From the NCBI GenBank assembly GCA_944367495.1, contig CALVWP010000004.1, positions 6,202 through 70,201 of the forward strand: a stretch of DNA of 64,000 nt, in the 5' to 3' direction. Origin of the DNA: an uncultured Bacilli bacterium (lineage in GTDB: Bacteria; Bacillota_I; Bacilli_A; RF39; UBA660). Positions 500 through 43,215 of the stretch are shown here, piece by piece; within the stretch, counting starts at the first letter, position 1; the number at the start of each line of letters is the position of its first letter. The position numbers and the translations under genes were made by a program. The notes under the pieces were generated by a model, which saw nothing but the letters and a program-made list of their open reading frames with translations, made no database searches and had not been told where the DNA came from.

Positions 500-735
500 G
501 TCATTTTTTCCACAGTAAAAATATTCATTAAATTTATACACATTTAATATCCACATCAATTTTCATTATATTATAAACTAAATTTTTCATTTTTCAACAT
601 ATGTGTAAAAAAATAAAATATACACAAAAGTGCAAAAGTTTTTTTCCACAATTTATGTGGAAATCTAACACAAATCCAAATATTTCGACAAAAAACGGTT
701 GTTTAAAACTTTTTTGACTTTTTCCACAGTTTTTA
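500..735. promoter_or_regulatory. oriC DnaA-box cluster upstream of dnaA, with TTTTCCACA boxes at 506-514, 642-650 and 720-728 and a reverse-oriented TTTCCACAT-like box at about 655-663
   Basis: Repeated 9-mers close to the DnaA-box consensus TTATCCACA lie in an AT-rich non-coding region between rpmH and dnaA. Confidence 0.7.
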
Positions 736-2139: not shown

Positions 2140-2204
2140 TGTAAAAAAATAAGTTATCAACAATTTTTCAACACCATATAAGTCCTTAAAAAACAATATA
2201 AACA

Positions 2205-2275
2205 TCTACTTTTCCACACTTATCCACACTTATAATAAAAATAAACTATTAAATAAACAAAAAGGAGGAAACAAT
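2205..2275. promoter_or_regulatory. dnaA-dnaN intergenic DnaA boxes (TTTTCCACA at 2210-2218, perfect TTATCCACA at 2220-2228) followed by an AT-rich candidate unwinding element
   Basis: Tandem boxes are directly followed by the run ATAATAAAAATAAACTATTAAATAAACAAAAA. This resembles the incC part of a bipartite Bacillus-type oriC. Confidence 0.6.
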
Positions 2276-3397
2276 ATGAAATTAGAAATAAAACAAAATA
2301 TTCTTTTAGAACATTTAAATTACGTAATAAGAGGAATTTCAAATAAAAATTTAAGACCAATATTAAATTGTATAAAATTTGATCTAACTGACGAAGGTTT
2401 ATATTTAATGAGTACTGATGGAGATATCTCAATAAAAACTTTTATCGATAAAAAATATATAACTAAAATAGACTCTACTGGCGAAATAGTTGTAGCAGGA
2501 AGATATATTTATGATATTATTAGAAAACTACCTAATGAAATTATTAATTTAGAAGAAGTAATAGACTCTAAACTTTATATTACAACTCATAATTCATCAT
2601 TTACATTAAACTGTAGTAATGTTAATGAATTTCCAGACTTAGAATTAGAGTTCAATACTAATCCTATAATTTTAAATCAAAAACTATTTAAGACAATAAT
2701 AAATCAAACTGCTTTTGCAACATCACTTAGTGAATCAAGACCAGCTTTAACCGGTATAAATTTTAAAATAACAAACGATAATTTAGAATGTACTGCTACT
2801 GATTCATACCGCTTAGCTATTAAAAAAATTAAATTAACAAACAATACTGTAGAAAATTCTAATATAATTATTCCAACTAAAAATTTAAATGAACTAGTAA
2901 AACTAATGAACAATGATGAAGATAATATTGAAATGCATATTTTTGCTAATAAAGTAATATTTAAGTTTGATCAAATAACTATGATGACTAGATTAATTAG
3001 TGGTACTTATCCAGATACATCTAAATTAATCCCTACAACCTACGAATTAACCATGAAAGTAAAATATGATGATTTATACAGTGCTATTGATCGTGCCTCT
3101 TTATTAACAAACGAAAGCGATAAAAATACCATTAAATTTGAAACAAATAAAGATATAGCTATTATCTCTTCAAATATTCCAGAAATAGGAAATGTCGAAG
3201 AAAAGATAAACATAGATAAAAATGAAGATAGTGAAATAAAAATCGCTTTTAATTCAAAATTTATGATGGAAGCTGTTAAAGCTTTAGAATCAGAAGAAAT
3301 AGAACTAATGTTTAATGGTGAAATAAAACCAATAATATTAAAAACTGTTGAAAGCGATGATTTAATTCAATTAATCCTACCTATAAGAACTTATTAA
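2276..3397 (+). CDS. dnaN: DNA polymerase III beta sliding clamp
   Basis: 373 aa. Follows dnaA. A GGAGG RBS is present. Confidence 0.95.
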   Translation: MKLEIKQNILLEHLNYVIRGISNKNLRPILNCIKFDLTDEGLYLMSTDGDISIKTFIDKKYITKIDSTGEIVVAGRYIYDIIRKLPNEIINLEEVIDSKLYITTHNSSFTLNCSNVNEFPDLELEFNTNPIILNQKLFKTIINQTAFATSLSESRPALTGINFKITNDNLECTATDSYRLAIKKIKLTNNTVENSNIIIPTKNLNELVKLMNNDEDNIEMHIFANKVIFKFDQITMMTRLISGTYPDTSKLIPTTYELTMKVKYDDLYSAIDRASLLTNESDKNTIKFETNKDIAIISSNIPEIGNVEEKINIDKNEDSEIKIAFNSKFMMEAVKALESEEIELMFNGEIKPIILKTVESDDLIQLILPIRTY

Positions 3398-3499: not shown

Positions 3500-3949
3500 A
3501 TGCTTAAAGAATTATATGAAATTAATAGCAAAACGTGTGCTCTTGTCCCAAATGATAACATGTCAGCGCAAATCATTGAAGAAAATAATAATTATAATGT
3601 TTTGAATTCTGTTCAAGATATTTTAAATTATAGTTGTTGTTATTATGGTAGCTCTTTTAAAGGTCGCCAAAGTGCTTCAAAATCCATTTTAGGTAGTAAA
3701 TATAAACTTCCTATTATAATAGAAGAAACAAGAGAAATTGTTTTTTTCCCTACTTCATCATATGAAAATAATAACTGTATATGGATTTCTTTAAAAAACA
3801 TTTCTAACTATCAAAAAAGTGGTAATAGAGTCATGGTTATATTTAAAAATAATACATCTATAACCTTAAATATTTCATATGAATCATTTGAAAATCAAGT
3901 ATTAAGAGCAACAAAACTGCTATTAGTTCTAAAAAGTCGCAAAATTTAA
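3500..3949 (+). CDS. comK: ComK-family competence transcription factor (shortened, 149 aa)
   Basis: Blocks YYGSSFKGRQ, LPIIIEETREIVFFPTSSYENNNCIWIS and ISYESFENQVLRATKL match B. subtilis ComK (FFGSSYAGRK, PPIMVDPSNQIFLFPTLSSTRPQCGWIS, ISYNSFENQVYRTAWL). The C-terminal ~40 residues are missing. Confidence 0.7.
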   Translation: MLKELYEINSKTCALVPNDNMSAQIIEENNNYNVLNSVQDILNYSCCYYGSSFKGRQSASKSILGSKYKLPIIIEETREIVFFPTSSYENNNCIWISLKNISNYQKSGNRVMVIFKNNTSITLNISYESFENQVLRATKLLLVLKSRKI

Positions 3950-4084: not shown

Positions 4085-5203
4085 ATGATAATAAAAACTC
4101 TTGAAATCAAAAATTTTCGAAACTACTCTTCCTTGCTTTTAAATCTATCTGATAAATTAAATATAATTTATGGACTTAATGGACAAGGAAAGACTAATTT
4201 GTTAGAAAGTATATATTTATTAGGTTTTACCACATCTCACCGCTCATTTACATCTGACAATTTAATCAAATCAGGTGAAGAAAAAGCTATTATTAAAGGT
4301 AAATTACAGAAAGATATTTCCTATAATTTAGAAATAAATCTAATGAAAACAAAAAAACAAGTAAAAATTGATGGCAAAATTCAAACAAAATTATCAAACT
4401 ACATTGAAAAAATGAATGTCATAATTTTTTCTTCTGAAGATTTAAATTTAATAAAAGGAAATCCAAATGAAAGAAGAAAATATTTTAATTTGGAATTATC
4501 ACAAATTTCACCCAATTATTATAGTGCTTTAAATGATTATAATAAACTTTTAAAATTGCGAAATGAATATTTAAAAGAATTAAATTTAAATATGCCTATC
4601 GATTTAAACTATTTTAATATTTTAACTGATTATTTAATAAATAAAAGTATTTTTATTTATCAAATGCGTAACAAATATGTGGAAAAGCTAAATAAAATCT
4701 GTCCACCTATCTTTGAAGAAATTGCCGGTATAAAAGGGTTTAATATAAAATATCATCCTTCTATAAATTTGGAAAATTTTGACAAAGAAACCATTAAAAA
4801 AACGTTAGAAAAAGCTTATAAAGATCATTTAGATAAAGAAATACGCTTTAAATCGACATTATATGGCCCTCACAGAGATGATTTTACTTTTGATATAGAT
4901 GATAACAACTTAAGAGAATTTGGCTCTCAGGGGCAGCAAAAAATGGCTATAATAGCTTTAAAATTATCTGAGATAGAAATTTTAAAAGATTTTAAAAGGA
5001 CAAATCCAATCATTTTATTAGATGACATCTTCAGTGATTTAGATAGTAATAAAAAAAACAATCTTTTAAAACATATAACAGGTGATATGCAAGTAATAAT
5101 TACAACAACTGATTTAGACAGCATTGATAAAAAACTCCTAACCACAGCTAAACTCATCCATATAGAAAATGGAAAAATCAAGGAAACAGAGGTGGAAAAA
5201 TGA
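4085..5203 (+). CDS. recF: DNA replication and repair protein RecF
   Basis: 372 aa. Walker A motif [12 protein letters not shown]. In the dnaN-recF-gyrB synteny. Confidence 0.93.
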
Positions 5204-7135: not shown

Positions 7136-9586
7136 ATGGATCACACAAGAGATAGATTAGAAGAAAATAATATAGTTAATGAAATTGAAAGCTCATTTAT
7201 TGAATATTCCATGAGTGTTATTAAGTCAAGAGCGCTTCCAGATTTGCGAGACGGACTTAAGCCTGTACATCGTCGTATATTATATTCAATGTATGAATCT
7301 GGTTACACTCCAGATAAACCACATAAGAAAAGTGCGCGTATAGTTGGAGATGTCATGGGTAAATATCACCCACATGGTGATTCAAGTATCTATGAAGCTA
7401 TGGTTCGTATGGCTCAAGATTTTAGCTATCGTTACATGTTAGTTGATGGTCACGGTAACTTTGGAAACATTGAAGGTTACGGTGCCGCAGCCATGCGTTA
7501 TACTGAATCAAGATTATCAAAAATTTCTTTAGAGTTATTAAGAGATATTAATAAAAACACAGTGGATTTTGTTCCAAACTTTGACGAATCTGAAAAAGAA
7601 CCATCTATTCTACCATCTAGATTTCCAAATATATTAGTAAATGGTACCATGGGAATTGCCGTTGGTATGGCAACAAATATTCCACCACATAACTTAGGGG
7701 AAGTAATTGACGGTTGTATCGCCTATATAGATAATCCAGATATAGATGTGGATGGCTTAATGCATTATATCAAAGGGCCAGATTTTCCAACTGGTGCGAC
7801 AATATTAGGTAATAGTGGTATCAAAAAAGCTTATGAAACCGGCCGTGGAACAATCACCATTAGAAGTAAAGCTACCATTGAAGAAAAAAATGGTCGTCAT
7901 TATATAATTATCGACGAAGTGCCTTATGGTGTAAATACTTCAGATTTAAAGGACAAAGTTGCCGAACTAGTTCATACAAAAGTAATTGATGGTATTTCCG
8001 ATTACCACACAGATTTAAAAAATGGCATTAAAATAACCATTACCTTGAAAAAAGATGCCAATCCTCAAGTTGTTTTAAATAACTTATATAAACATACTCA
8101 GTTTCAAACAACATATGGAATTATTCTTTTAATGTTAGATAATAACACACCAAGAACATTAGGATTAAAAAAAATTATATCTAAATACATTGATTATCAA
8201 AAGGAAGTAATTATTCGAAGAACAAAATTCGACTTAGATAAAGCCGAAAAAAGAGTTCACATTTTAGAAGGGTATAAAATAGCTTTAGATAATATTGATG
8301 ACTTTATCAAAATTATCAAAGAAGCTAAAACTGATACCGAAGCTAAAGCTAAATTAGTAGAAAAATATAAATTAACAGAAACCCAAGCAGAAGCTATACT
8401 TGAATTAAAATTACGTAGATTAACTGGTTTAGAAAGAGAAAAAATAGAATCTGAATTAAAAGATTTATTAGAAAAAATAAAATATTATAATGAAATTCTT
8501 GCTTCAGAAGCCAAAGTGCTAGAAATAATTAAAAAAGAAATGTTAGAAATAAAAAATAAATATGGCGATGAAAGAAGAACAAACATCGATATGACAGCTA
8601 TTGATTATATTGAAGATGAATCATTAATTCCTGTGGAAAACATCGTAGTAACTTTAACCAATAAAGGTTATATTAAAAGAATGACCAGTGAAACATATAA
8701 AGCTCAAAATCGTGGTGGAGTTGGTATCAAAGGAATGACCACCAACGAAAATGATTTTGTGGAAAAAATCATCTCCATGACCACCCATGATTATCTAATG
8801 TTCTTTACCAATAAGGGTAAAGTTTACAGAGTAAAAGGTTATGAAATTCCGCAATATAGTCGTCAATCGAAAGGTCTTCCAATCATAAATCTTCTTCCTT
8901 TTGAAAAAAATGAAGAAGTAACAGCCATGTTAAAAATCAATCAAAATGAAGACAGCCATAATATTGTATTTTGTACACAAAACGGTCTAATAAAAAGAAC
9001 AGCCATAGAAGAATTCAAAAATATAAGAAAAAGTGGAAAAATAGCTATTTCTTTAAAAGATGACGATCAATTAATATCTGTCAAAAAAACAACTGGTGAA
9101 AATGAAATCGTTATTGCCGCCTCAAATGGTCGCATGATTAGATTTAATGAGCAAGAAATTAGAATAATGGGTAGATCAGCATCAGGTGTAAAAGGAATAG
9201 AATTAGGTAATGCCAAATGTGTTGGATGTGAAATTGCCGATTCTAATAGTCAAATATTAGTTGTAACAGAAAAAGGCTATGGAAAACGTACAAACATCAA
9301 CGAATACCGTATGACCCATCGTGGAAGTAAAGGAGTAAAAGCCTTAAATATAACTGACAAAAACGGAAACATAGTATCATTTAAAATAGTAAACGGCGAT
9401 GAAGATCTTATGATAATAACAAACAGCGGAATCATTATCAGACTTCCAATTGAACAAATTTCTACAACAGGTAGAATTGCTCAAGGAGTAAGATTAATTA
9501 ATTTAAAAGATAATCAAACTGTTAGTAGTATTGCCTTATTGTCTAAAGAAGAAGCTGACGAAGATCAAGATAATTTAGAAAATTAA
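7136..9586 (+). CDS. gyrA: DNA gyrase subunit A
   Basis: 816 aa. Active-site region AAMRYTE and C-terminal beta-pinwheel repeats. Confidence 0.97.
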
Positions 9587-9589
9587 CTA

Positions 9590-9607
9590 ATGTTTCACGT
9601 GAAACAT
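9590..9607. promoter_or_regulatory. parS site 1 (4 bp after the gyrA stop)
   Basis: Exact ATGTTTCACGTGAAACAT. Confidence 0.8.
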
Positions 9608-9615
9608 TGGATCAA

Positions 9616-9651
9616 AGACTGTAATAATTTAGTTTGTTACAGTCTTTTTTC
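9616..9651 (+). terminator. Rho-independent terminator downstream of gyrA
   Basis: 9-bp stem AGACTGTAA/TTACAGTCT with a 12-nt loop followed by TTTTTT. It lies between parS copies 1 and 2. Confidence 0.6.
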
Positions 9652-9663
9652 ATAAAAAAAGCT

Positions 9664-9681
9664 ATGTTTCACGTGAAACAT
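9664..9681. promoter_or_regulatory. parS site 2
   Basis: Exact palindrome. Confidence 0.8.
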
Positions 9682-9774
9682 AGCTACAAATGAATTAAAA
9701 TCGCAACAAACATATAAAATAGTATAATTTATATAAAGTTTAAAGAACTAAAAATAATGTAATTTGTATTTTCA

Positions 9775-9792
9775 ATGTTTCACGTGAAACAT
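9775..9792. promoter_or_regulatory. parS site 3
   Basis: Exact palindrome. Confidence 0.8.
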
Positions 9793-9845
9793 TGAACTAA
9801 ACTCCAAATAATTTATAAGATTCAATCATTTTTATAAAAACACCT

Positions 9846-9863
9846 ATGTTTCACGTGAAACAT
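9846..9863. promoter_or_regulatory. parS site 4
   Basis: Exact palindrome. Confidence 0.8.
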
Positions 9864-10078
9864 AGAAATAAAAAGATAAAAAAATGTAGAAATAAATAAC
9901 CATATTTAAAAGATTTTTACATTTATAAGGACAAAGAATAAAACACTTTATAAATAATATATTAATTAGAAATATTAAAAGTATAGAATTTTTTAATTTT
10001 GTTACAAGAAAAATTATTGTTAAAATAATCTTATTCACTTTAATATATTTTATAATAAAATATTTTTCCACAGCAGTA

Positions 10079-10096
10079 ATGTTTCACGTGAAACAT
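10079..10096. promoter_or_regulatory. parS site 5, immediately preceded by the DnaA-box 9-mer TTTTCCACA at 10064-10072
   Basis: Exact palindrome. Confidence 0.8.
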
Positions 10097-10209
10097 AGTA
10101 ATAAAAAAGTAATGAAACATCAAATATTCTTAAACATTTAAATTTATTAAAAGAAATGGTGTTATGGTAATATTTTATAAATACCGCCTATGCTTTTAAA
10201 AGTTATCCG

Positions 10210-10227
10210 ATGTTTCACGTGAAACAT
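10210..10227. promoter_or_regulatory. parS site 6
   Basis: Exact palindrome. TTATCCGAT precedes it. Confidence 0.8.
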
Positions 10228-10442
10228 TGCTAAAATTAGTATAAATAATTATAAAATCATTAAAAATGTTTATATTATTAAGAGAAAAAGTTAAAAATAT
10301 AGAAGATTTAATATAATTTAAAGAAAATAAATATAATAAAATTAAGTAGTAAAATTATTATGTTTATTCTATATTATTAAAATAGCATTGCTTACTTTAA
10401 ATATCTCTAGTTTTTATATAAAAATATTTTTCCACAGCAGTA

Positions 10443-10460
10443 ATGTTTCACGTGAAACAT
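10443..10460. promoter_or_regulatory. parS site 7, preceded by TTTTCCACA at 10427-10435
   Basis: Exact palindrome. Confidence 0.8.
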
Positions 10461-10574
10461 AGTGATAAAAAAGTAATGAACACCAAATCTTCTTAAAACA
10501 TTTAAATTTATTAAAAGAAAAAATAATTATGGCAATATTTTATAAATACTGTCTATGCTTTTAAAAGTTATCCA

Positions 10575-10592
10575 ATGTTTCACGTGAAACAT
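10575..10592. promoter_or_regulatory. parS site 8
   Basis: Exact palindrome. TTATCCAAT precedes it. Confidence 0.8.
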
Positions 10593-10745
10593 TAGACTAG
10601 AAAGCACAAAAATAAAGCAGCAAACAAAAACCACATAGCTCAAAAGAAAATATGCTAAAATATATCTTATGTTTTGAATGATGGTTTAAAGTAACTCTAA
10701 TATAATTAATAAATCAAAAAATAAGTTTATTTTATCTATATCAGC

Positions 10746-10763
10746 AATGTTTCACGTGAAACA
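10746..10763. promoter_or_regulatory. parS site 9
   Basis: Exact palindrome. Confidence 0.8.
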
Positions 10764-10980
10764 TTGCTAAAAATTAGTATAAATAATTATAAAATCATTA
10801 AAAATGTTTATATTATTAAGAGAAAAAGTTAAAAATATAGAAGATTTAATATAATTTAAAGAAAATAAGTATAATAAAATTAAGTAGTAAAATTATTATG
10901 TTCATTCTATATTATTAAAATAGCATTGCTTACTTTAAGTATCTCTAGTTTTCATATAAAAATATTTTTCCACAGCAGCA

Positions 10981-10998
10981 ATGTTTCACGTGAAACAT
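10981..10998. promoter_or_regulatory. parS site 10, preceded by TTTTCCACA at 10966-10974
   Basis: Exact palindrome. Confidence 0.8.
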
Positions 10999-11112
10999 AG
11001 TGATAAAAAAGTGATGAACACCAAATTTTCTTAAAACATTTAAATTTATTAAAAGAAAAAATAATTATGGCAATATTTTATAAATACTGTCTATGCTTTT
11101 AAAAGTTATCCA

Positions 11113-11130
11113 ATGTTTCACGTGAAACAT
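11113..11130. promoter_or_regulatory. parS site 11
   Basis: Exact palindrome. Confidence 0.8.
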
Positions 11131-11230
11131 TGATGTAAAAAGATACTAAAAAAATATAAAAATATTTAAAATAGTTATTTTATTATAAAACATATGAAAT
11201 AAATTTGAAATAGTTTGCCAAATTAATCTA

Positions 11231-11248
11231 ATGTTTCACGTGAAACAT
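11231..11248. promoter_or_regulatory. parS site 12, followed by a reverse-oriented DnaA-box 9-mer (TGTGGAAAA at 11266-11274)
   Basis: Exact palindrome. Confidence 0.8.
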
Positions 11249-11320
11249 TGGTACAAAAAAATACTGTGGAAAAAGCCAAAAACTATTGAAAAAAAATAAA
11301 AAATATTATATTATATCAAT

Positions 11321-11393
11321 GGTACAACACTTATGGCTGAACCAGGTCAGAATCGGAAGATAGCAGCCTTAAAGCCCTCTAAGCGTGTGTACC
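11321..11393 (+). ncRNA. ffs: Signal recognition particle RNA (small 4.5S-type scRNA)
   Basis: The conserved domain IV motif ACCAGGUCAGAAUCGGAAGAUAGCAGCC is present. Terminal helix GGUACA...UGUACC, followed by U6. The position is immediately upstream of tadA-dnaX. B. subtilis has scr between tadA and dnaX, so the placement here is shifted by one gene. Confidence 0.75.
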
Positions 11394-11412
11394 TTTTTTG
11401 TAGGTGATTTAT

Positions 11413-11826
11413 ATGAATGAATATATGCTTCTAGCACTCAAAGAGGCTAAAAAAAGTTTAAAAACAGATGATATACCAATAGGCGCAGTAATTGTAGAAA
11501 ATGATAAAATAATAGCTAAAAGCCATAATACAAGAGAAAAAACAAACATAATTACAAAGCATGCTGAAATAAACGCCATTGAAAAAGCTTGTAAAAAGAA
11601 AAAAACATGGCATTTAGATGAATGTGTACTTTATACAACATTAGAACCATGTCCTATGTGCTTAGAAGTAATCAAACAAGCTAGAATCAAAACAGTTTTT
11701 TATTGTGCAAAGCAAACCAAACAAATAAATTATAAAGAAATTAAATTTATTAAAATAGAAGATGTGGAAAACTATAGTGATTTATTGAAAAAATTCTTCA
11801 AAAATAAAAGAAAAAAAATAAAATGA
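11413..11826 (+). CDS. tadA: tRNA-specific adenosine deaminase
   Basis: HAEINAI and PCPMC zinc-binding motifs. Start moved to the ATG 6 nt after an AGGTGA RBS (the ORF track starts at 11404). Confidence 0.88.
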   Translation: MNEYMLLALKEAKKSLKTDDIPIGAVIVENDKIIAKSHNTREKTNIITKHAEINAIEKACKKKKTWHLDECVLYTTLEPCPMCLEVIKQARIKTVFYCAKQTKQINYKEIKFIKIEDVENYSDLLKKFFKNKRKKIK

Positions 11827-11956
11827 TGCGCATTAGAACAAAAAACATTTTTATCACATAAAAAATGTGGAAAACTATTCACAATATACATTAAAAAATC
11901 ATTTTAATCTTATTTAACTAATAAATATGATATAATAAACAAGTAGAGGTGGTAAA

Positions 11957-13660
11957 ATGTATCAAGCCTTATATCGAAAATATAGGCCAAAAACATTAGA
12001 TGATGTATGTGGTCAAGACATAATCGTTAAGATAATTAAAAATTCTATCATAAATGGTCAAATAAATCATGCTTACTTGTTTGCTGGTCCTAGAGGTACT
12101 GGAAAAACCAGTGTAGCTAAAATATTTGCTAAAATAATAAACTGTGAAAATCCCAAAGATTGCCAACCTTGTGGAAAATGTATAAGTTGTACTCAAGAAA
12201 ATAACAGTGATATTATTGAAATTGATGCCGCCAGCAACAATGGTGTTGATGAAATTAGAGAGTTAAAAAATAAAGTTAATCTTTTGCCAGCCTATGGTAA
12301 ATATAAAGTTTATATAATAGACGAAGTTCATATGCTAACTCAAGGTGCATTCAATGCCCTCTTAAAAACATTAGAAGAACCGCCAGAACATGTTATTTTT
12401 ATACTAGCTACCACCGATCCTCATAAAGTCATTGAAACTATATTATCTAGATGTCAACGCTTAGATTTCAAAAAAATAAGTATAAATGACATAGTTAAAA
12501 ATTTAACCAAAATTGCTAAAAAAGAAAAAATTGATATAAACCAAGATGCTATTATAGAAATTGCTAAACAGTCTGACGGTGGAATGCGCGATTCAGTAGG
12601 TTTGTTAGATCAAGCAAGAGCCTATACCGAAAGTAAAATAACTATAAAAGATATACATGATATTACAGGGACATTAACCGAAGAAGATTTAGTCGATATA
12701 TTAGAAAGTATTATTGATGAAAAATTAGATATAATTTTGGAAAAAATTGATAAATTCAATGATCAAGGAAAAAATTTTATTAAATTAATCGAAGAAATGA
12801 TTAATTTTTCAAGAAATATTATTTTATTCAAAGAAGCTCCAAATTATTTTAAAGAAAAAAATGAAAATATAGAAATATATGAACAACTTTCAAAAAAAAT
12901 TACCATCAGTAAGCTATTTAATATAATAGAAATATTAAATAAATATTCTTTTGAAATGAAAAACACAAGTAATAGCAAATTATTATTTGAATTAGCATTT
13001 ATAAAAATAATTTCTGAAAAGAGCAATCAAAATGTGGAAAAATTAGCCGAAAATCCTCAAAAAAATAATGGCAAAGAAAAGCAAATTATTTCATTATCAA
13101 AAGAAAGTGAAAAAAATGAAAAAATCCAGCCAAAAAGCGAACAAAAACCAAACAAAAATCAAGAATCAACACCTAAAAATCATATAAAAAATATCAAAGA
13201 AAACGAAAAAATAAAAGAATTAAAAAAAATAAGAATAGATAACACCCTCGCCTATTTTAATAAACAAGAAATGCGCTCAATTATTCAAAAACTCGAAAAA
13301 TTAAATGACTTATTATTAAATCCAGATTATAGTCATGCTGCCTCTATTTTGTTAGATGGTACCCTAAAAGCTGCTAGTGATAAGTATCTGATATTTATAT
13401 ATAAAACAGATAGATTATCAAACTTATTCAATGAAAATTTATTGGTTTTAGAAGAAACTATTGCCAAAATACTAAATAAAAAATATAATTTAATTGCAAC
13501 TGATATAAACGAATGGGAAACAATAAAAAATGAATTCAATAAAAAATTAAGATCCTTTGTTTATAAAGAAGAACCATATAAACTTGAAGATATTTTCAAA
13601 AACGATGAAAATACTGATAATATTCAATCTATGTTTGAAGATATCATAGAATATAATTAA
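11957..13660 (+). CDS. dnaX: DNA polymerase III subunits gamma/tau
   Basis: 567 aa. GPRGTGKTS Walker A motif, zinc module CQPCGKCISC, and dnaX-ybaB-recR synteny. Confidence 0.95.
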   Translation: MYQALYRKYRPKTLDDVCGQDIIVKIIKNSIINGQINHAYLFAGPRGTGKTSVAKIFAKIINCENPKDCQPCGKCISCTQENNSDIIEIDAASNNGVDEIRELKNKVNLLPAYGKYKVYIIDEVHMLTQGAFNALLKTLEEPPEHVIFILATTDPHKVIETILSRCQRLDFKKISINDIVKNLTKIAKKEKIDINQDAIIEIAKQSDGGMRDSVGLLDQARAYTESKITIKDIHDITGTLTEEDLVDILESIIDEKLDIILEKIDKFNDQGKNFIKLIEEMINFSRNIILFKEAPNYFKEKNENIEIYEQLSKKITISKLFNIIEILNKYSFEMKNTSNSKLLFELAFIKIISEKSNQNVEKLAENPQKNNGKEKQIISLSKESEKNEKIQPKSEQKPNKNQESTPKNHIKNIKENEKIKELKKIRIDNTLAYFNKQEMRSIIQKLEKLNDLLLNPDYSHAASILLDGTLKAASDKYLIFIYKTDRLSNLFNENLLVLEETIAKILNKKYNLIATDINEWETIKNEFNKKLRSFVYKEEPYKLEDIFKNDENTDNIQSMFEDIIEYN

Positions 13661-13678
13661 TAGAAAGAAGGAATAAAA

Positions 13679-13975
13679 ATGAATATACAAGCTATGATGA
13701 AACAAGCTCAAAAATTACAAAATGATATGTTAAATGAAAAAAAGCAAATTGATGAAAAAACATTTGAAGGACATTCTTCCATTGTTACTGTAAAAGTTAA
13801 AGGGACAAAAGAAGTCAGCGAAGTAAAAATAGACGCAGAAAAATTGGAAAAAGATGATATAGAAATGCTAGAAGACATGATTTTAGTTGCTATAAACGAT
13901 GCTAATCATCAAATTGACGAAGAAACTGAACGCAAAATGGGTAAATATACTAAAGGAATGCCAGGTCTTTTCTAA
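13679..13975 (+). CDS. ybaB: Nucleoid-associated protein YbaB/EbfC
   Basis: 98 aa. Typical YbaB N-terminus MNIQAMMKQAQKLQ. Lies between dnaX and recR. Confidence 0.9.
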   Translation: MNIQAMMKQAQKLQNDMLNEKKQIDEKTFEGHSSIVTVKVKGTKEVSEVKIDAEKLEKDDIEMLEDMILVAINDANHQIDEETERKMGKYTKGMPGLF

Positions 13976-14574
13976 TGAATTATCCAAAAACTATATTAAA
14001 TTTAATTGAATGTTTTAAAAAATTTCCCGGTATAGGTGAAAAAACAGCCGAAAGATTAGCTTTAGCAAGCCTAAATATGGATGAAGATATAATAAATCTT
14101 TTTAGCGCTTCCCTAAAAGATGGTAAAGAAAAAATAAAAAAGTGCCAAAAGTGTGGTAGTTTAACTGAAGATGATTTATGCCAAATATGCACTGATTCAT
14201 CTAGAGACATTTCTACTTTATGTGTTGTTGAAGAATGTAAAAATGTAATCTTATTTGAAAAAATAGGATCTTATAAAGGACTATATCATGTATTAGGTGG
14301 TCTAATTTCTCCATTAGATGGCATCAACCCAGAAGATATACATATTGATAAATTAATAGATAGAATAAAAAAAGAAAATATAAAAGAAGTTATATTAGCT
14401 ATAAAACCAAGTGTTGAGGGTGAAACAACCGCTTTATATATTAGAAAAATGTTAGAAGGAACTAATGTAAAAGTTTCTAAAATTGCCCACGGTATACCAA
14501 TGGGTGCTGACATTGATTATATAGATCCTCTAACCCTAGAAATGGCTATCGAAGATCGAACAACAATTTCATAA
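13975..14574 (+). CDS. recR: Recombination protein RecR
   Basis: 199 aa. C4 zinc finger CQKCGSLTEDDLCQIC and a Toprim domain. Confidence 0.95.
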   Translation: MNYPKTILNLIECFKKFPGIGEKTAERLALASLNMDEDIINLFSASLKDGKEKIKKCQKCGSLTEDDLCQICTDSSRDISTLCVVEECKNVILFEKIGSYKGLYHVLGGLISPLDGINPEDIHIDKLIDRIKKENIKEVILAIKPSVEGETTALYIRKMLEGTNVKVSKIAHGIPMGADIDYIDPLTLEMAIEDRTTIS

Positions 14575-14612
14575 AATGACTTTTTTTGCTATATAATTTA
14601 TTGAGGTGTTTC

Positions 14613-14798
14613 ATGCTTAATAAATTATTTAAAATATTCAAAAAATTTATCATGAGTTTTTTCATGCTATACGGTTATAATGTAATTGTCCCAGCCACCG
14701 CTATTATTCCAATTAATTTAATAACTGTATTATTAATCACTCTTTTCAGTATTCCCGCCTTTATTTTTTTAATTGTTATAAGATTAGTTGTATATTAG
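14613..14798 (+). CDS. bofA: Pro-sigma-K processing inhibitor BofA-like small membrane protein
   Basis: IIPINLITV...SIPAFIFLIVIR aligns with B. subtilis BofA HVPINLVTT...GIPGIAALVVIK. The position after recR matches Bacillus. Start moved to the ATG after a GAGGTG RBS (the track starts at a TTG at 14586). Confidence 0.55.
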   Translation: MLNKLFKIFKKFIMSFFMLYGYNVIVPATAIIPINLITVLLITLFSIPAFIFLIVIRLVVY

Positions 14799-14809
14799 GA
14801 GGAATTAAG

Positions 14810-15760
14810 ATGTTAGATAGTTATAAAGGATCACAACCTATCGCATATAAAATTTTAAAAAACGCTATTATAAACGATAAATGTTCTCACGCCTATTTAA
14901 TTGAAACAGGCGGTTTTTATGATTCTTTTGACTTTGTAATGTCTTTTATAAAATCACTCCTTTGTCCATATAATAAAACTCAAAAAGAAGATTGTGGAAA
15001 TTGTCATCAATGTGAGATCATCGATTCTGGAAATTTCCCGGAAATCGAAATCATTGAACCAGATGGTCAGTGGATCAAAAAAGACCAACTTCAAAATTTA
15101 CAAAAAGAATTTAATACTAAAGCTTTAATTGGAAATAAAAGAGTTTATATCATAAAAAAAGCTGATAGATTAAACAAAGCAGCTGCCAATTCCATTTTAA
15201 AGTTTTTAGAAGAACCAGATAATAATATAGTTGCTATTTTAATAACTGATAACATATACAACGTTTTATCGACAATTAGATCAAGGTGTCAAATATTAAA
15301 CTTAAAACCAACTAATATTGCCAAAGAAAACATTTCATGGTTAGAAAAAATAAAACAAATTCTCTTTAATCAAAAAAAAGAACTTCTAGATTTCGAAGAA
15401 ATTGATTTAAAGATTCAAAAAGTTATTGATTTTGTTTGTTATTATGAAAAAAATCATTTAAATACTATTCTTTATATAGGGAAAATATGGAATGATTATA
15501 TAAAAACTAAAGAAGAAATAGATATGTCTTTTGAAATAATGATAAACTATTATAAAGATGTTTTAAATTATATTCTAAATAAACCATTAGAAATATTTGA
15601 AACAAGTAATGAAATAAAAATGATTGCTGAAAAAAACAGTCAAACAGAAATTTGCCGAAAAATTAACGTTTTAGTTGAATTAAAACAATTAATAAAATAT
15701 AATATTAATCAAAGCTTATTAATGGACAAGCTAATTATGCGATTAGAGGAAGTGATATAA
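14810..15760 (+). CDS. holB: DNA polymerase III subunit delta'
   Basis: 316 aa. AAA+-like N-terminus with CGNCHQC zinc module. Follows recR and bofA. Confidence 0.85.
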   Translation: MLDSYKGSQPIAYKILKNAIINDKCSHAYLIETGGFYDSFDFVMSFIKSLLCPYNKTQKEDCGNCHQCEIIDSGNFPEIEIIEPDGQWIKKDQLQNLQKEFNTKALIGNKRVYIIKKADRLNKAAANSILKFLEEPDNNIVAILITDNIYNVLSTIRSRCQILNLKPTNIAKENISWLEKIKQILFNQKKELLDFEEIDLKIQKVIDFVCYYEKNHLNTILYIGKIWNDYIKTKEEIDMSFEIMINYYKDVLNYILNKPLEIFETSNEIKMIAEKNSQTEICRKINVLVELKQLIKYNINQSLLMDKLIMRLEEVI

Positions 15761-41564: not shown

Positions 41565-42350
41565 ATGGGAAAAATAATTGCACTTGTCAATCAAAAAGGT
41601 GGAGTTGGAAAAACAACTTCCAGCATTAATTTGGCTGCTTCACTAGGTTATCTAGGAAGAAAAACATTACTAATAGATTTAGACCCTCAGGGAAATAGTA
41701 CAACCGGTTTAGGTATTGACAAAGGTGACATAAAAAAAAGCATATATGATTTATTAACCGATGAAGCTGAGTTAAAAGAAGTAATCAAAAAGACTAAATT
41801 TAAAAACCTATACATTATTCCAGCAACTATAAGCTTAGCTGGAGCAGATTTAGAATTAGCCGAAAAAAGCAAATTGGATCCGACTTTTTCTAAAAATAGG
41901 CAATTAAAAACTAAATTAGAAGAAGTAAAAGAAGTCTTTGATTATATAATCATTGATTGTCCGCCCTCACTAGGACTATTAACAACTAATGCTTTAACAG
42001 CGGCCAACTCAGTTATTATTCCAGTACAGTGCGAATTCTTTGCCCTAGAAGGTATTATGCAACTATTAAATTCAATCATGCTGGCGCAAAAAACATTAAA
42101 CCCAACATTAGATATTGAAGGGGTTTTATTAACTATGCTTGATAATAGAACAAATCTTGGCTTAGAAGTTGTTCAAGATATCAAAAGTTATTTCAAAGAA
42201 AGAGTATATGATACAATAATACCAAGACTAGTGAGATTATCAGAAGCTCCAAGTCATGGTAAACCAATAATAAACTATGATCCTAAAAGTCGCGGAGCAG
42301 AAGCATACATTAATTTAGCAAAAGAGGTGATTTATCGAAATGGAAAATAG
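41565..42350 (+). CDS. soj: Chromosome partitioning ATPase ParA/Soj
   Basis: 261 aa. Deviant Walker A motif KGGVGKTT. Immediately upstream of parB. Confidence 0.95.
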   Translation: MGKIIALVNQKGGVGKTTSSINLAASLGYLGRKTLLIDLDPQGNSTTGLGIDKGDIKKSIYDLLTDEAELKEVIKKTKFKNLYIIPATISLAGADLELAEKSKLDPTFSKNRQLKTKLEEVKEVFDYIIIDCPPSLGLLTTNALTAANSVIIPVQCEFFALEGIMQLLNSIMLAQKTLNPTLDIEGVLLTMLDNRTNLGLEVVQDIKSYFKERVYDTIIPRLVRLSEAPSHGKPIINYDPKSRGAEAYINLAKEVIYRNGK

Positions 42351-43215
42351 AAGAGCTTTAGGAAAAGGCTTAGAACAATTATTTGATTTAGATAATTTAA
42401 ATGTAAATAATGTTGGTGACTTTGAAAAAAACATTTATGAAGATACTAAACATGAAGAAATTGTGGAATTAAACATTGATGATTTAAGACCAAATCCATA
42501 CCAACCAAGAACAATCTTTGATGAAGCAGCATTGCAAGAATTAGCTGAATCAATTAAAGAAAACGGTGTTTTCCAACCAATTATTGTTAAAAAAAGTATC
42601 AAAGGTTATGATGTCATTGCTGGTGAAAGAAGACTTAGAGCTAGTAAAATAGCTGGTAAAAAAACTATACCAGCCATCATTAGGCAAATAAGTGATGAAA
42701 AAATGGCGGAAATTGCTTTACTAGAGAACTTACAAAGAGAAAACTTAAATGCCCTAGAAGAAGCAAAAGCTTATAAAAGTTTAATTGAAAAATTAAATCT
42801 AACTCAAGAAGAGTTAGCCAAAAAAGTAAGTAAAAGTAGAAGTCATATTACTAACATGTTAGGTCTTCTCCGTCTTCCTGGTGAAGTTCAAGACATGATT
42901 ACAACCGGGAAAATAACGATGGGTCATGCTAGAGCTTTAAGTAAATTAGAAGATAAAGAAGAAATTGTGAAAATGGCCACCAACATCACCGAAAAAGGTT
43001 TAACCGTAAGAGATGTTGAAGCGCAAAGTGAAGAGGCCCCTAAAATACATCAAACAAATAGAAAAACAAAAAATAACGAATTTAAATATGTTCAAGATTT
43101 ACTTAGGGAAAAATTAGATACAAAAGTAAAAATAAAAGACAAAAAAATTGAAATATCTTTTACTAACACAGCTGATTTGAATAGAATTTTAGAAATTTTA
43201 AATATAAAGGAGTAA
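42340..43215 (+). CDS. spo0J: Chromosome partitioning protein ParB/Spo0J
   Basis: 291 aa. ParB box GERRLRA, HTH, C-terminal dimerisation region. Overlaps the soj stop. Confidence 0.95.
   Translation: MENRRALGKGLEQLFDLDNLNVNNVGDFEKNIYEDTKHEEIVELNIDDLRPNPYQPRTIFDEAALQELAESIKENGVFQPIIVKKSIKGYDVIAGERRLRASKIAGKKTIPAIIRQISDEKMAEIALLENLQRENLNALEEAKAYKSLIEKLNLTQEELAKKVSKSRSHITNMLGLLRLPGEVQDMITTGKITMGHARALSKLEDKEEIVKMATNITEKGLTVRDVEAQSEEAPKIHQTNRKTKNNEFKYVQDLLREKLDTKVKIKDKKIEISFTNTADLNRILEILNIKE

Follow-up and report, generated by a model that had tools for sequence, protein, structure and literature searches.

Repeated parS units and adjoining predicted DnaA boxes downstream of gyrA in an uncultured Bacilli bacterium

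A non-coding stretch of 1.7 kb downstream of gyrA in an uncultured Bacilli bacterium holds twelve perfect copies of parS, the site of the chromosomal ParABS partition system, packed into 1.66 kb. We analyzed it within a 64-kb window of DNA (contig CALVWP010000004.1), and all positions given below are coordinates of this window. The stretch is probably a chromosomal centromere that is kept uniform by duplication and conversion, and that carries, beside parS, predicted DnaA boxes under selection.

The parS array, its repeats and its partition system

The parS 16-mer TGTTTCACGTGAAACA occurs 12 times in the 64 kb, against 0.01 copies expected, and all of these exact sites lie inside 9591-11247 and are palindromes of the chromosomal parS consensus TGTTNCACGTGAAACA. 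The array DNA is non-coding and about 80% A+T. Spacing between sites is irregular (71-234 bp), and the repeat units measure 364-385 bp. The array and its borders comprise the following features.

7136..9586, + strand: gyrA, the conserved left border of the parS array
9591..11247, no strand assigned: twelve perfect parS 16-mers, starting at 9591, 9665, 9776, 9847, 10080, 10211, 10444, 10576, 10748, 10982, 11114 and 11232
9589..9865, + strand: an older duplicated pair of two-parS segments (9589-9683 and 9774-9865, 81% identical)
9614..9652, + strand: gyrA terminator hairpin, then a U run (folding: -18.3 kcal/mol, z -6.6)
10046..10227, + strand: copy C, a half unit made of a DnaA box, a parS, a 131-nt start-to-start spacing and a second parS
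10210..10592, + strand: copy A, a full 383-bp unit
10593..10745, + strand: unique 153-bp spacer between A and B
10746..11130, + strand: copy B, a full 385-bp unit, 97.7% identical to copy A
11311..11408, + strand: signal recognition particle (SRP) RNA gene (ffs), the right border of the array

A preliminary description of this DNA put the identity of the two full units at about 98%, which agrees with a global alignment of A (383 nt) and B (385 nt), where 376 of 385 columns match and there are 7 mismatches and 2 gap columns. The differences amount to seven transitions and one 1-nt insertion-deletion (indel), the longest identical stretch shared by the two copies is about 104 nt, and the similarity breaks off sharply at both unit ends. 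The partial third copy reported at 10046-10227 does meet the first full copy through a common parS, since the site at 10211-10226 is both the end of copy C and the start of copy A. Aligned with the right halves of the full units, copy C reaches 90.2% identity with A and 88.6% with B. C and A together form a 1.5-copy tandem repeat with a period of 364, and the unit recurs once more 538 bp downstream, as B. As delimited, each unit has the three parS palindromes originally counted, two terminal and one internal, and each repeat period therefore adds two parS. The first four sites of the array are accounted for by the older duplication. The first parS sits between the gyrA stop codon and the terminator hairpin, and the other 11 lie beyond the hairpin. 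No array-wide tandem repeat was detected in the window by Tandem Repeats Finder. Head-to-tail short units with one palindrome each, of the kind known from sopC, are absent from the window and occur in the related loci L008, L030, L058 and L079 (L numbers designate the compared loci).

A parA-parB operon lies at 41565-43215, 31 kb from the array, and consists of two genes.

41565..42350, + strand: parA, a soj-like ATPase gene
42340..43215, + strand: parB, with ParB_N and HTH_ParB domains, a GERRLRA motif and parS-type specificity residues (R and G)

The ParB protein matches PF02195 and PF17762 and scores above the cut-off of TIGR00180, and its score against the Noc model is below the cut-off (250 < 315). 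At the positions corresponding to R173 and G201 it has R and G; these two positions contact parS in ParB and are changed to Q and R in Noc (Jalal et al.). A cognate ParB with a CTP-binding domain and parS-type helix-turn-helix residues is thus encoded in the window along with ParA. The array is also origin-proximal, as is typical of a chromosomal centromere, at 7.4-9.0 kb downstream of the oriC boxes between dnaA and dnaN.

We compared 80 related loci, of which 58 have at least 3 kb of sequence downstream of gyrA. The order dnaA, dnaN, gyrA, array, tadA, dnaX is conserved, and the position of the array between gyrA and ffs, tadA and dnaX is kept in most of the 80, most of which have several parS directly 3' of gyrA. 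Across the 58 longer loci, the first 3 kb after gyrA contain a median of 4 and a maximum of 11 parS, so the 12 of the window are the highest number seen. In many relatives the arrays are strictly periodic, repeating about every 36, 38, 54, 62, 64, 74, 84 or 106 bp (range 36-107).

Because dense repeated centromeres are typical of plasmids, and DnaA boxes in DNA of 80% A+T look superficially origin-like, the region might be taken for the remnant of a plasmid or phage partition locus or for a second replication origin. We consider this extremely improbable. A blastn search of the region against 72,556 plasmid and 50,697 phage records returned no similarity, no mobile-element genes were found in the window, and the region is syntenic in most relatives; its boxes are single and widely spaced, and a bipartite oriC of normal type is present on both sides of dnaA. 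Canonical parS, the parA-parB genes, the synteny on the gyrA side and the lack of plasmid or phage similarity together argue for the chromosomal centromere of the lineage. As judged from sequence, the organism has its main chromosomal ParABS centromere here, between gyrA and the SRP RNA gene, in an array that has been rebuilt repeatedly by local amplification.

All data from the same species are short-read assemblies, and the preliminary description allowed that long reads might expose the repeats as an assembly duplication. The low-coverage contig L083, which was seen in two samples, does have only one unit and 9 parS rather than 12 (compared with window 9529-11948); it is without one unit plus spacer (538 bp) at a coverage of about 2x, which may be a real contraction or an assembly collapse. 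Among the 80 relatives, 21 contigs end less than 2 kb after gyrA, and 12 of these have a parS or a site resembling a Noc-binding site (NBS) in the last 120 nt, as expected if repeats break short-read assemblies. The arrays are a systematic break point of short-read metagenome-assembled genomes (MAGs) just after gyrA. A duplication made by the assembler is nevertheless highly improbable for the window, and we rejected it. Copies A and B are distinguished by single-nucleotide polymorphisms (SNPs) and flank a unique spacer, and the layout recurs in other samples: the exact TadA protein was found on four other contigs from other samples, and two of these, L081 and L082, span the whole gap at 99.7% identity to the window with the same 12 sites at the same spacing. 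The 1.52-Mb chromosome of a sister species assembled from HiFi reads (OZ007022.1, L004) shows a tandem repeat of 332 bp in the corresponding place; its two copies, each with boxes and parS, match at 100% over 300 nt.

Strain differences point to exchange between the units. A single 1-nt indel is all that distinguishes copy A from copy B in L081 and L082, and all seven SNPs that separate A from B in the window fall, relative to these two strains, in copy A as one tract (10331-10489); outside this tract the remaining 3-4.5 kb differs between strains at just 1-8 positions. L081 has in addition a private G-to-T change that is found in A (10437) and again in B (10975). The switch of SNPs in one tract and the private change present in both copies are a signature of gene conversion between copies, a signal to be read with the caveat that copies could be blurred in a short-read consensus. 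The original suggestion of recent duplication or concerted evolution is well borne out by these observations and by the near-identity of A and B. Between species, about 45-65 nt around box and parS can be aligned, and the rest of the unit is species-specific. Unit length also differs among species of the clade, from about 300 nt in L007 and 332 nt in L004 to about 400 nt in L002.

DnaA boxes adjoining parS

DnaA boxes are recognized by the consensus class TT(A/T)TNCACA of Schaper and Messer. The 9-mer TTTTCCACA fits this class and is found 20 times in the window against 1.2 copies expected, including four positions in or at the end of the array.

10064..10072, + strand: DnaA box TTTTCCACA, 7 nt before the parS at 10080
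10428..10436, + strand: DnaA box TTTTCCACA, 7 nt before the parS at 10444
10966..10974, + strand: DnaA box TTTTCCACA, 7 nt before the parS at 10982
11265..11273, - strand: DnaA box in inverted orientation, 17 nt beyond the final parS; conserved in 6/9 species of the clade

The inverted box is located about 13 nt upstream of a promoter-like site for the SRP RNA. It had been noted before and is indeed present, on the - strand and at 11265 rather than 11266. The earlier observation that each unit carries the variant used at the organism's own oriC was confirmed by exact matches at 506, 642, 720 and 2210, and the same variant is the dominant oriC box in most relatives too. Boxes in the array and at oriC are in + orientation, contrary to the - strand bias of the other copies in the window.

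The species of the genus-level clade to which the window belongs tell more about the boxes than the window by itself. An unbiased count of the 6-mers flanking parS in the nine clade species returned TCCACA and CCACAG as the top non-AT words on the gyrA side, and TCCACA(G) placed 6-8 nt before parS is the top conserved non-AT motif, found in 9/9 species. These words occur in 9/9 species compared with 2/9 in control windows, a conservation that exceeds that of the flanks. On the other side of parS the top 6-mer is TGTGGA (6/9 species), which corresponds to the terminal inverted box. A box at the 6-8 nt gap accompanies 28 of the 73 parS in the clade, and the upstream flanks carry almost no information. 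The number of boxes per array ranges from 1 to 6 and shows no increase with array size. Co-variation of the box variant between oriC and array was considered and rejected, as L006 has TAATCCACA in its array and TTTTCCACA at oriC.

Outside the clade, box and parS are separated by 1 nt (L027, L029, L052) or 5 nt (L045), and other arrangements are seen in L059, L062 and L078; these seven loci fall in separate GyrA groups. Counting by group, a strong box within 12 nt of parS was found in 8/39 groups against 3.2 expected (P about 0.007). TCCACA-N7-parS was found 57 times in a scan of metagenome contigs; the matches form 24 sequence clusters, and their G+C contents range from 0.23 to 0.70. In 6/24 clusters the three free upstream bases complete the word to TT[A/T/G]TCCACA, compared with 1.16 expected (P about 7e-4). 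A metagenome scan with the exact 36-mer of box and parS from the window gave 0 matches. A predicted DnaA box adjoining parS is thus a recurring arrangement and not an obligatory part of the centromere. The preliminary description had proposed a combined module of DnaA box and parS, which holds for the box itself, kept in all nine clade species and enriched across lineages. It does not extend to the whole repeated unit, the remainder of which is unalignable between species, nor to most related groups, which are without boxes.

Several further box-like sequences were noted. Metagenome contigs from unrelated bacteria (L085-L138) have a full DnaA box exactly 7 nt from parS, and many of these sites are just upstream of or beside parA-parB. 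They include high-GC contigs with the box variant TTGTCCACA, which is typical of actinobacteria. Within the window, the word GTTATCC(A/G)A occurs directly 5' of the second-type parS of each unit (10202-10210, 10567-10575, 11105-11113); it resembles the gap-1 composite TTATCCACAaTGTTTCAC of L027 and L052 minus two bases and may be a decayed or weak DnaA box. Copies of TTTTCCACA outside oriC and the array are at 4678, 6576, 8632, 8758, 11763, 11866, 12170, 13033, 17885 and 17906. Nearly all of them are on the - strand and most are inside recF, gyrB, gyrA, tadA or dnaX; those in recF, gyrB and gyrA recur at matching positions in most of L002-L005. The regional - strand copies could reflect coding constraint or a regional landscape of DnaA binding. 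Two 47-nt direct repeats (11729-11775 and 11832-11878, 72% identical) extend over the end of tadA and the intergenic stretch up to dnaX; the last bases of each are ATGTGGAAAACTAT, a DnaA box in inverted orientation.

Possible roles of the boxes and known systems

From the sites, repeats, conservation, strain-level conversion and parAB genes that are observed here, we infer ParB binding, DnaA binding and any regulatory consequence. According to established ParABS biology, the 12 parS would load the ParB encoded at 42340-43215, which together with ParA, and with SMC by analogy, would segregate and organize the origin region. Segmental duplication, unequal recombination and gene conversion between units would build and homogenize the array, giving rise to near-identical 385-bp copies. 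A subset of units carries a TT[A/T]TNCACA-class box of canonical sequence at a fixed 6-8 nt from parS, an inverted box closes the array, and these boxes appear to be conserved under selection in the clade. Most likely they would bring a small number of DnaA molecules into the partition complex. They might serve a crosstalk between centromere and initiator of the Caulobacter type, or they might titrate DnaA, being part of a locus whose copy number doubles shortly after initiation.

A number of observations weigh against selected boxes with a role at the centromere, and several of them would fit a real centromere with passenger boxes, in which a box that arose by chance beside parS in a box-rich origin region was copied with the unit and has no function linked to ParB. 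Of the 20 copies of TTTTCCACA, 19 are within the origin-proximal 20 kb, inside genes too, and the association of box and parS may be partly regional. The three + boxes of the window belong to one repeat family and from the window alone represent one independent case. A conserved linker, G-Y-A-Y-T-A-A, indicates that the composites of the clade share ancestry from one ancestor and thus reflect fewer independent events. In 31/39 related groups the arrays have no strong box nearby, which shows that the box is not needed for centromere function. Gap (1, 5 or 7 nt) and orientation also vary between lineages, contrary to one fixed protein-protein geometry, and in B. subtilis the control of DnaA by ParA is independent of parS position (PMC7614844). 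We nevertheless regard passenger boxes as rather unlikely, given that the box is kept in every clade species while its AT-rich surroundings and the remaining parts of the unit can no longer be aligned, and that boxes recur at parS in 7 other lineages and, with the 7-nt gap, in unrelated metagenome bacteria above expectation.

Boxes that act mainly as an origin-proximal sink for DnaA, damping re-initiation once the locus has been replicated, would make their adjacency to parS secondary. Four consensus-class boxes within 1.2 kb, at 8-9 kb from oriC, would suit such a sink, and duplication of the unit would scale the box number. There is also a precedent in B. subtilis, where deleting six DnaA-box clusters outside oriC led to early initiation and inactivating spo0J on top had a further effect (PMC3245932). 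Titration leaves the fixed gap of 6-8 nt to parS unexplained, however; the boxes of the array are 364, 538 and 299 bp apart and form no tight cluster of the datA type, and the few boxes per array do not grow in number with the array. A sink as the main role is unlikely on these grounds. Much less likely still is a roadblock, with DnaA bound at a box stopping ParB sliding clamps and making their spreading one-sided, the first + box and the terminal inverted box bracketing the main array. It would account for the layout in 6/9 clade species, which have + boxes ahead of internal parS and an inverted box beyond the last one, each box pointing its CACA end towards the parS. This inference is purely geometric, four parS (9591-9847) are outside the bracket, internal boxes would split the array, and other lineages show other orientations.

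Going beyond a selected box at a homogenized centromere, we tentatively raise a broader possibility, to which we give distinctly less credence, that the gap between gyrA and dnaX is, in the order of gut Bacilli to which the window belongs, a modular origin-organizing array in which units of parS and the site of a second protein are co-amplified, the DnaA box being part of a functional composite. If so, the gain and loss of repeats could set jointly how many ParB, DnaA and Noc sites the origin carries. The second site would be a DnaA box here and a Noc palindrome in many relatives, with all three kinds of site in some. DnaA occupancy might then gate or sense the loading of ParB, also where the composite stands beside parAB in unrelated phyla.

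Like the parS-Spo0J-Soj system of B. subtilis and other Firmicutes, the locus combines the 16-bp parS consensus at an origin-proximal position with a GERRxRA ParB that has parS-type residues and an adjoining ParA gene. B. subtilis has about ten parS across a large origin-proximal domain, several of them inside genes. Here, 12 perfect sites are in 1.66 kb of non-coding DNA with recent repeats, and parAB is 31 kb off. Origin-proximal clustering of parS is itself well documented, and some species have as many as 20-23 sites (PMC7333895). Many ParB-family sites arranged as direct repeats in a short non-coding block are shared with the sopC centromere of plasmid F, in which a 43-bp direct repeat containing a 16-bp inverted repeat occurs 12 times (PMC3177203); some relatives of the window are even periodic (36-107 bp). 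The array differs from sopC in that it is chromosomal, has the chromosomal parS sequence, and combines irregular spacing (71-234 bp) with longer units (364-385 bp).

The coupling of initiator and partition sites was thought to be undescribed when this DNA was first annotated, and this claim has to be withdrawn. In Caulobacter, the parS centromere contains boxes to which DnaA binds, and its translocation requires DnaA (Mera, Kalogeraki and Shapiro 2014, as reviewed in PMC6399470). C. crescentus likewise has DnaA boxes in a centromere about 8 kb from the origin, with initiator and ParB at one locus. It belongs to another phylum, and the predicted box described here is in a repeated unit at a fixed 6-8 nt from parS. 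The centromere locus of V. cholerae chromosome II is in rctA and is bound by ParB2 and RctB (PMC3688505; PMC6399470), and D. radiodurans is reported to have direct repeats with ori and parS-like functions (PMC7671480). In both, initiator and partition proteins have intermingled target sites within a single locus that contains repeats, as in the window, but these are secondary replicons with plasmid-like initiators or iterons; the window belongs to a primary chromosome, and its DnaA boxes and parS are canonical. Consensus boxes near but outside oriC that could bind DnaA after duplication are a feature shared with the DnaA-box clusters of B. subtilis and with datA of E. coli; in the array, each box stands alone, hundreds of bp from the next, and is tied to a parS.

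In the literature, we found no description of 12 perfect parS in 1.66 kb of non-coding chromosomal DNA, of an array visibly constructed and homogenized by repeats, or of a conserved fixed-gap unit of DnaA box and parS in a Firmicute-type lineage. The causes of the variation in parS number and of parS clustering are named as open questions in reviews of ParABS (PMC7333895). This lineage shows the process directly, with arrays of 0-12 sites rebuilt per species at one syntenic position and conversion visible between strains. It also offers a natural, sequence-defined composite of DnaA box and parS in a Firmicute-type lineage, extending the single experimental precedent from Caulobacter. Constructs with the box present, absent or moved provide a simple test of an effect of the initiator on ParB loading, or of the reverse.

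The origin region and other arrays in relatives

The window opens at the replication origin. The genes rnpA and rpmH (- strand) are followed by dnaA (799-2139) and dnaN (2276-3397), then by a ComK-family open reading frame (ORF), recF, gyrB and gyrA, and after the non-coding stretch by the SRP RNA, tadA and dnaX. The GC skew is positive from just before dnaA. The two parts of the bipartite oriC are the following.

506..728, + strand: oriC part 5' of dnaA, with TTTTCCACA at 506, 642 and 720 and weaker boxes at 534 and 547
2154..2228, + strand: oriC part in the gap between dnaA and dnaN, with adjoining boxes TTTTCCACA (2210) and TTATCCACA (2220), plus TTATCAACA (2154)

The ComK-family ORF between dnaN and recF (3500-3949; PF06338, E 3e-42) occupies a slot that in Firmicutes usually holds the small S4-like gene yaaA. 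No record with an exact match to the GyrA protein was found; its identity is at most 92% to proteins of MAGs from uncultured gut 'Bacilli', with labels that include Tenericutes, Mollicutes and Clostridium sp. CAG:710. The organism is therefore an AT-rich bacterium of the gut that has a small genome and no cultured relative.

Promoter-like sites in the array do not exceed the level of shuffled sequence (25 vs 20), and predicted 'terminators' within it were rejected as the parS palindromes themselves. Rfam searches placed the SRP RNA at the border of the array only; all other matches were at chance level, and no RNA family was identified inside it. A 'GTGTGTGCTT' motif near parS in relatives was likewise rejected as a binding site because it is the 3' end of the SRP RNA gene.

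Arrays in relatives include sites of a further protein. The NBS palindrome ATTTCCCGGGAAAT alternates 1:1 with parS in the tandem units of many relatives, with periods of 62-84 bp (for example L058 12671-13150, L079 3819-4310, L073 2695-2935 and L027 12489-12532). In total, 98 NBS sites fall in gaps between gyrA and dnaX (1.09 per kb) compared with 40 in the other 1.36 Mb (0.03 per kb). None were found in the window or its clade, and L027, L045 and L078 have NBS, DnaA box and parS together. Finally, three parS are in frame inside dnaX in L039 (14374-14487, within the dnaX ORF at 13300-14973) and in L026 (14456-14561), where they encode repeated NV(S/P)RET peptides in the linker region of DnaX.

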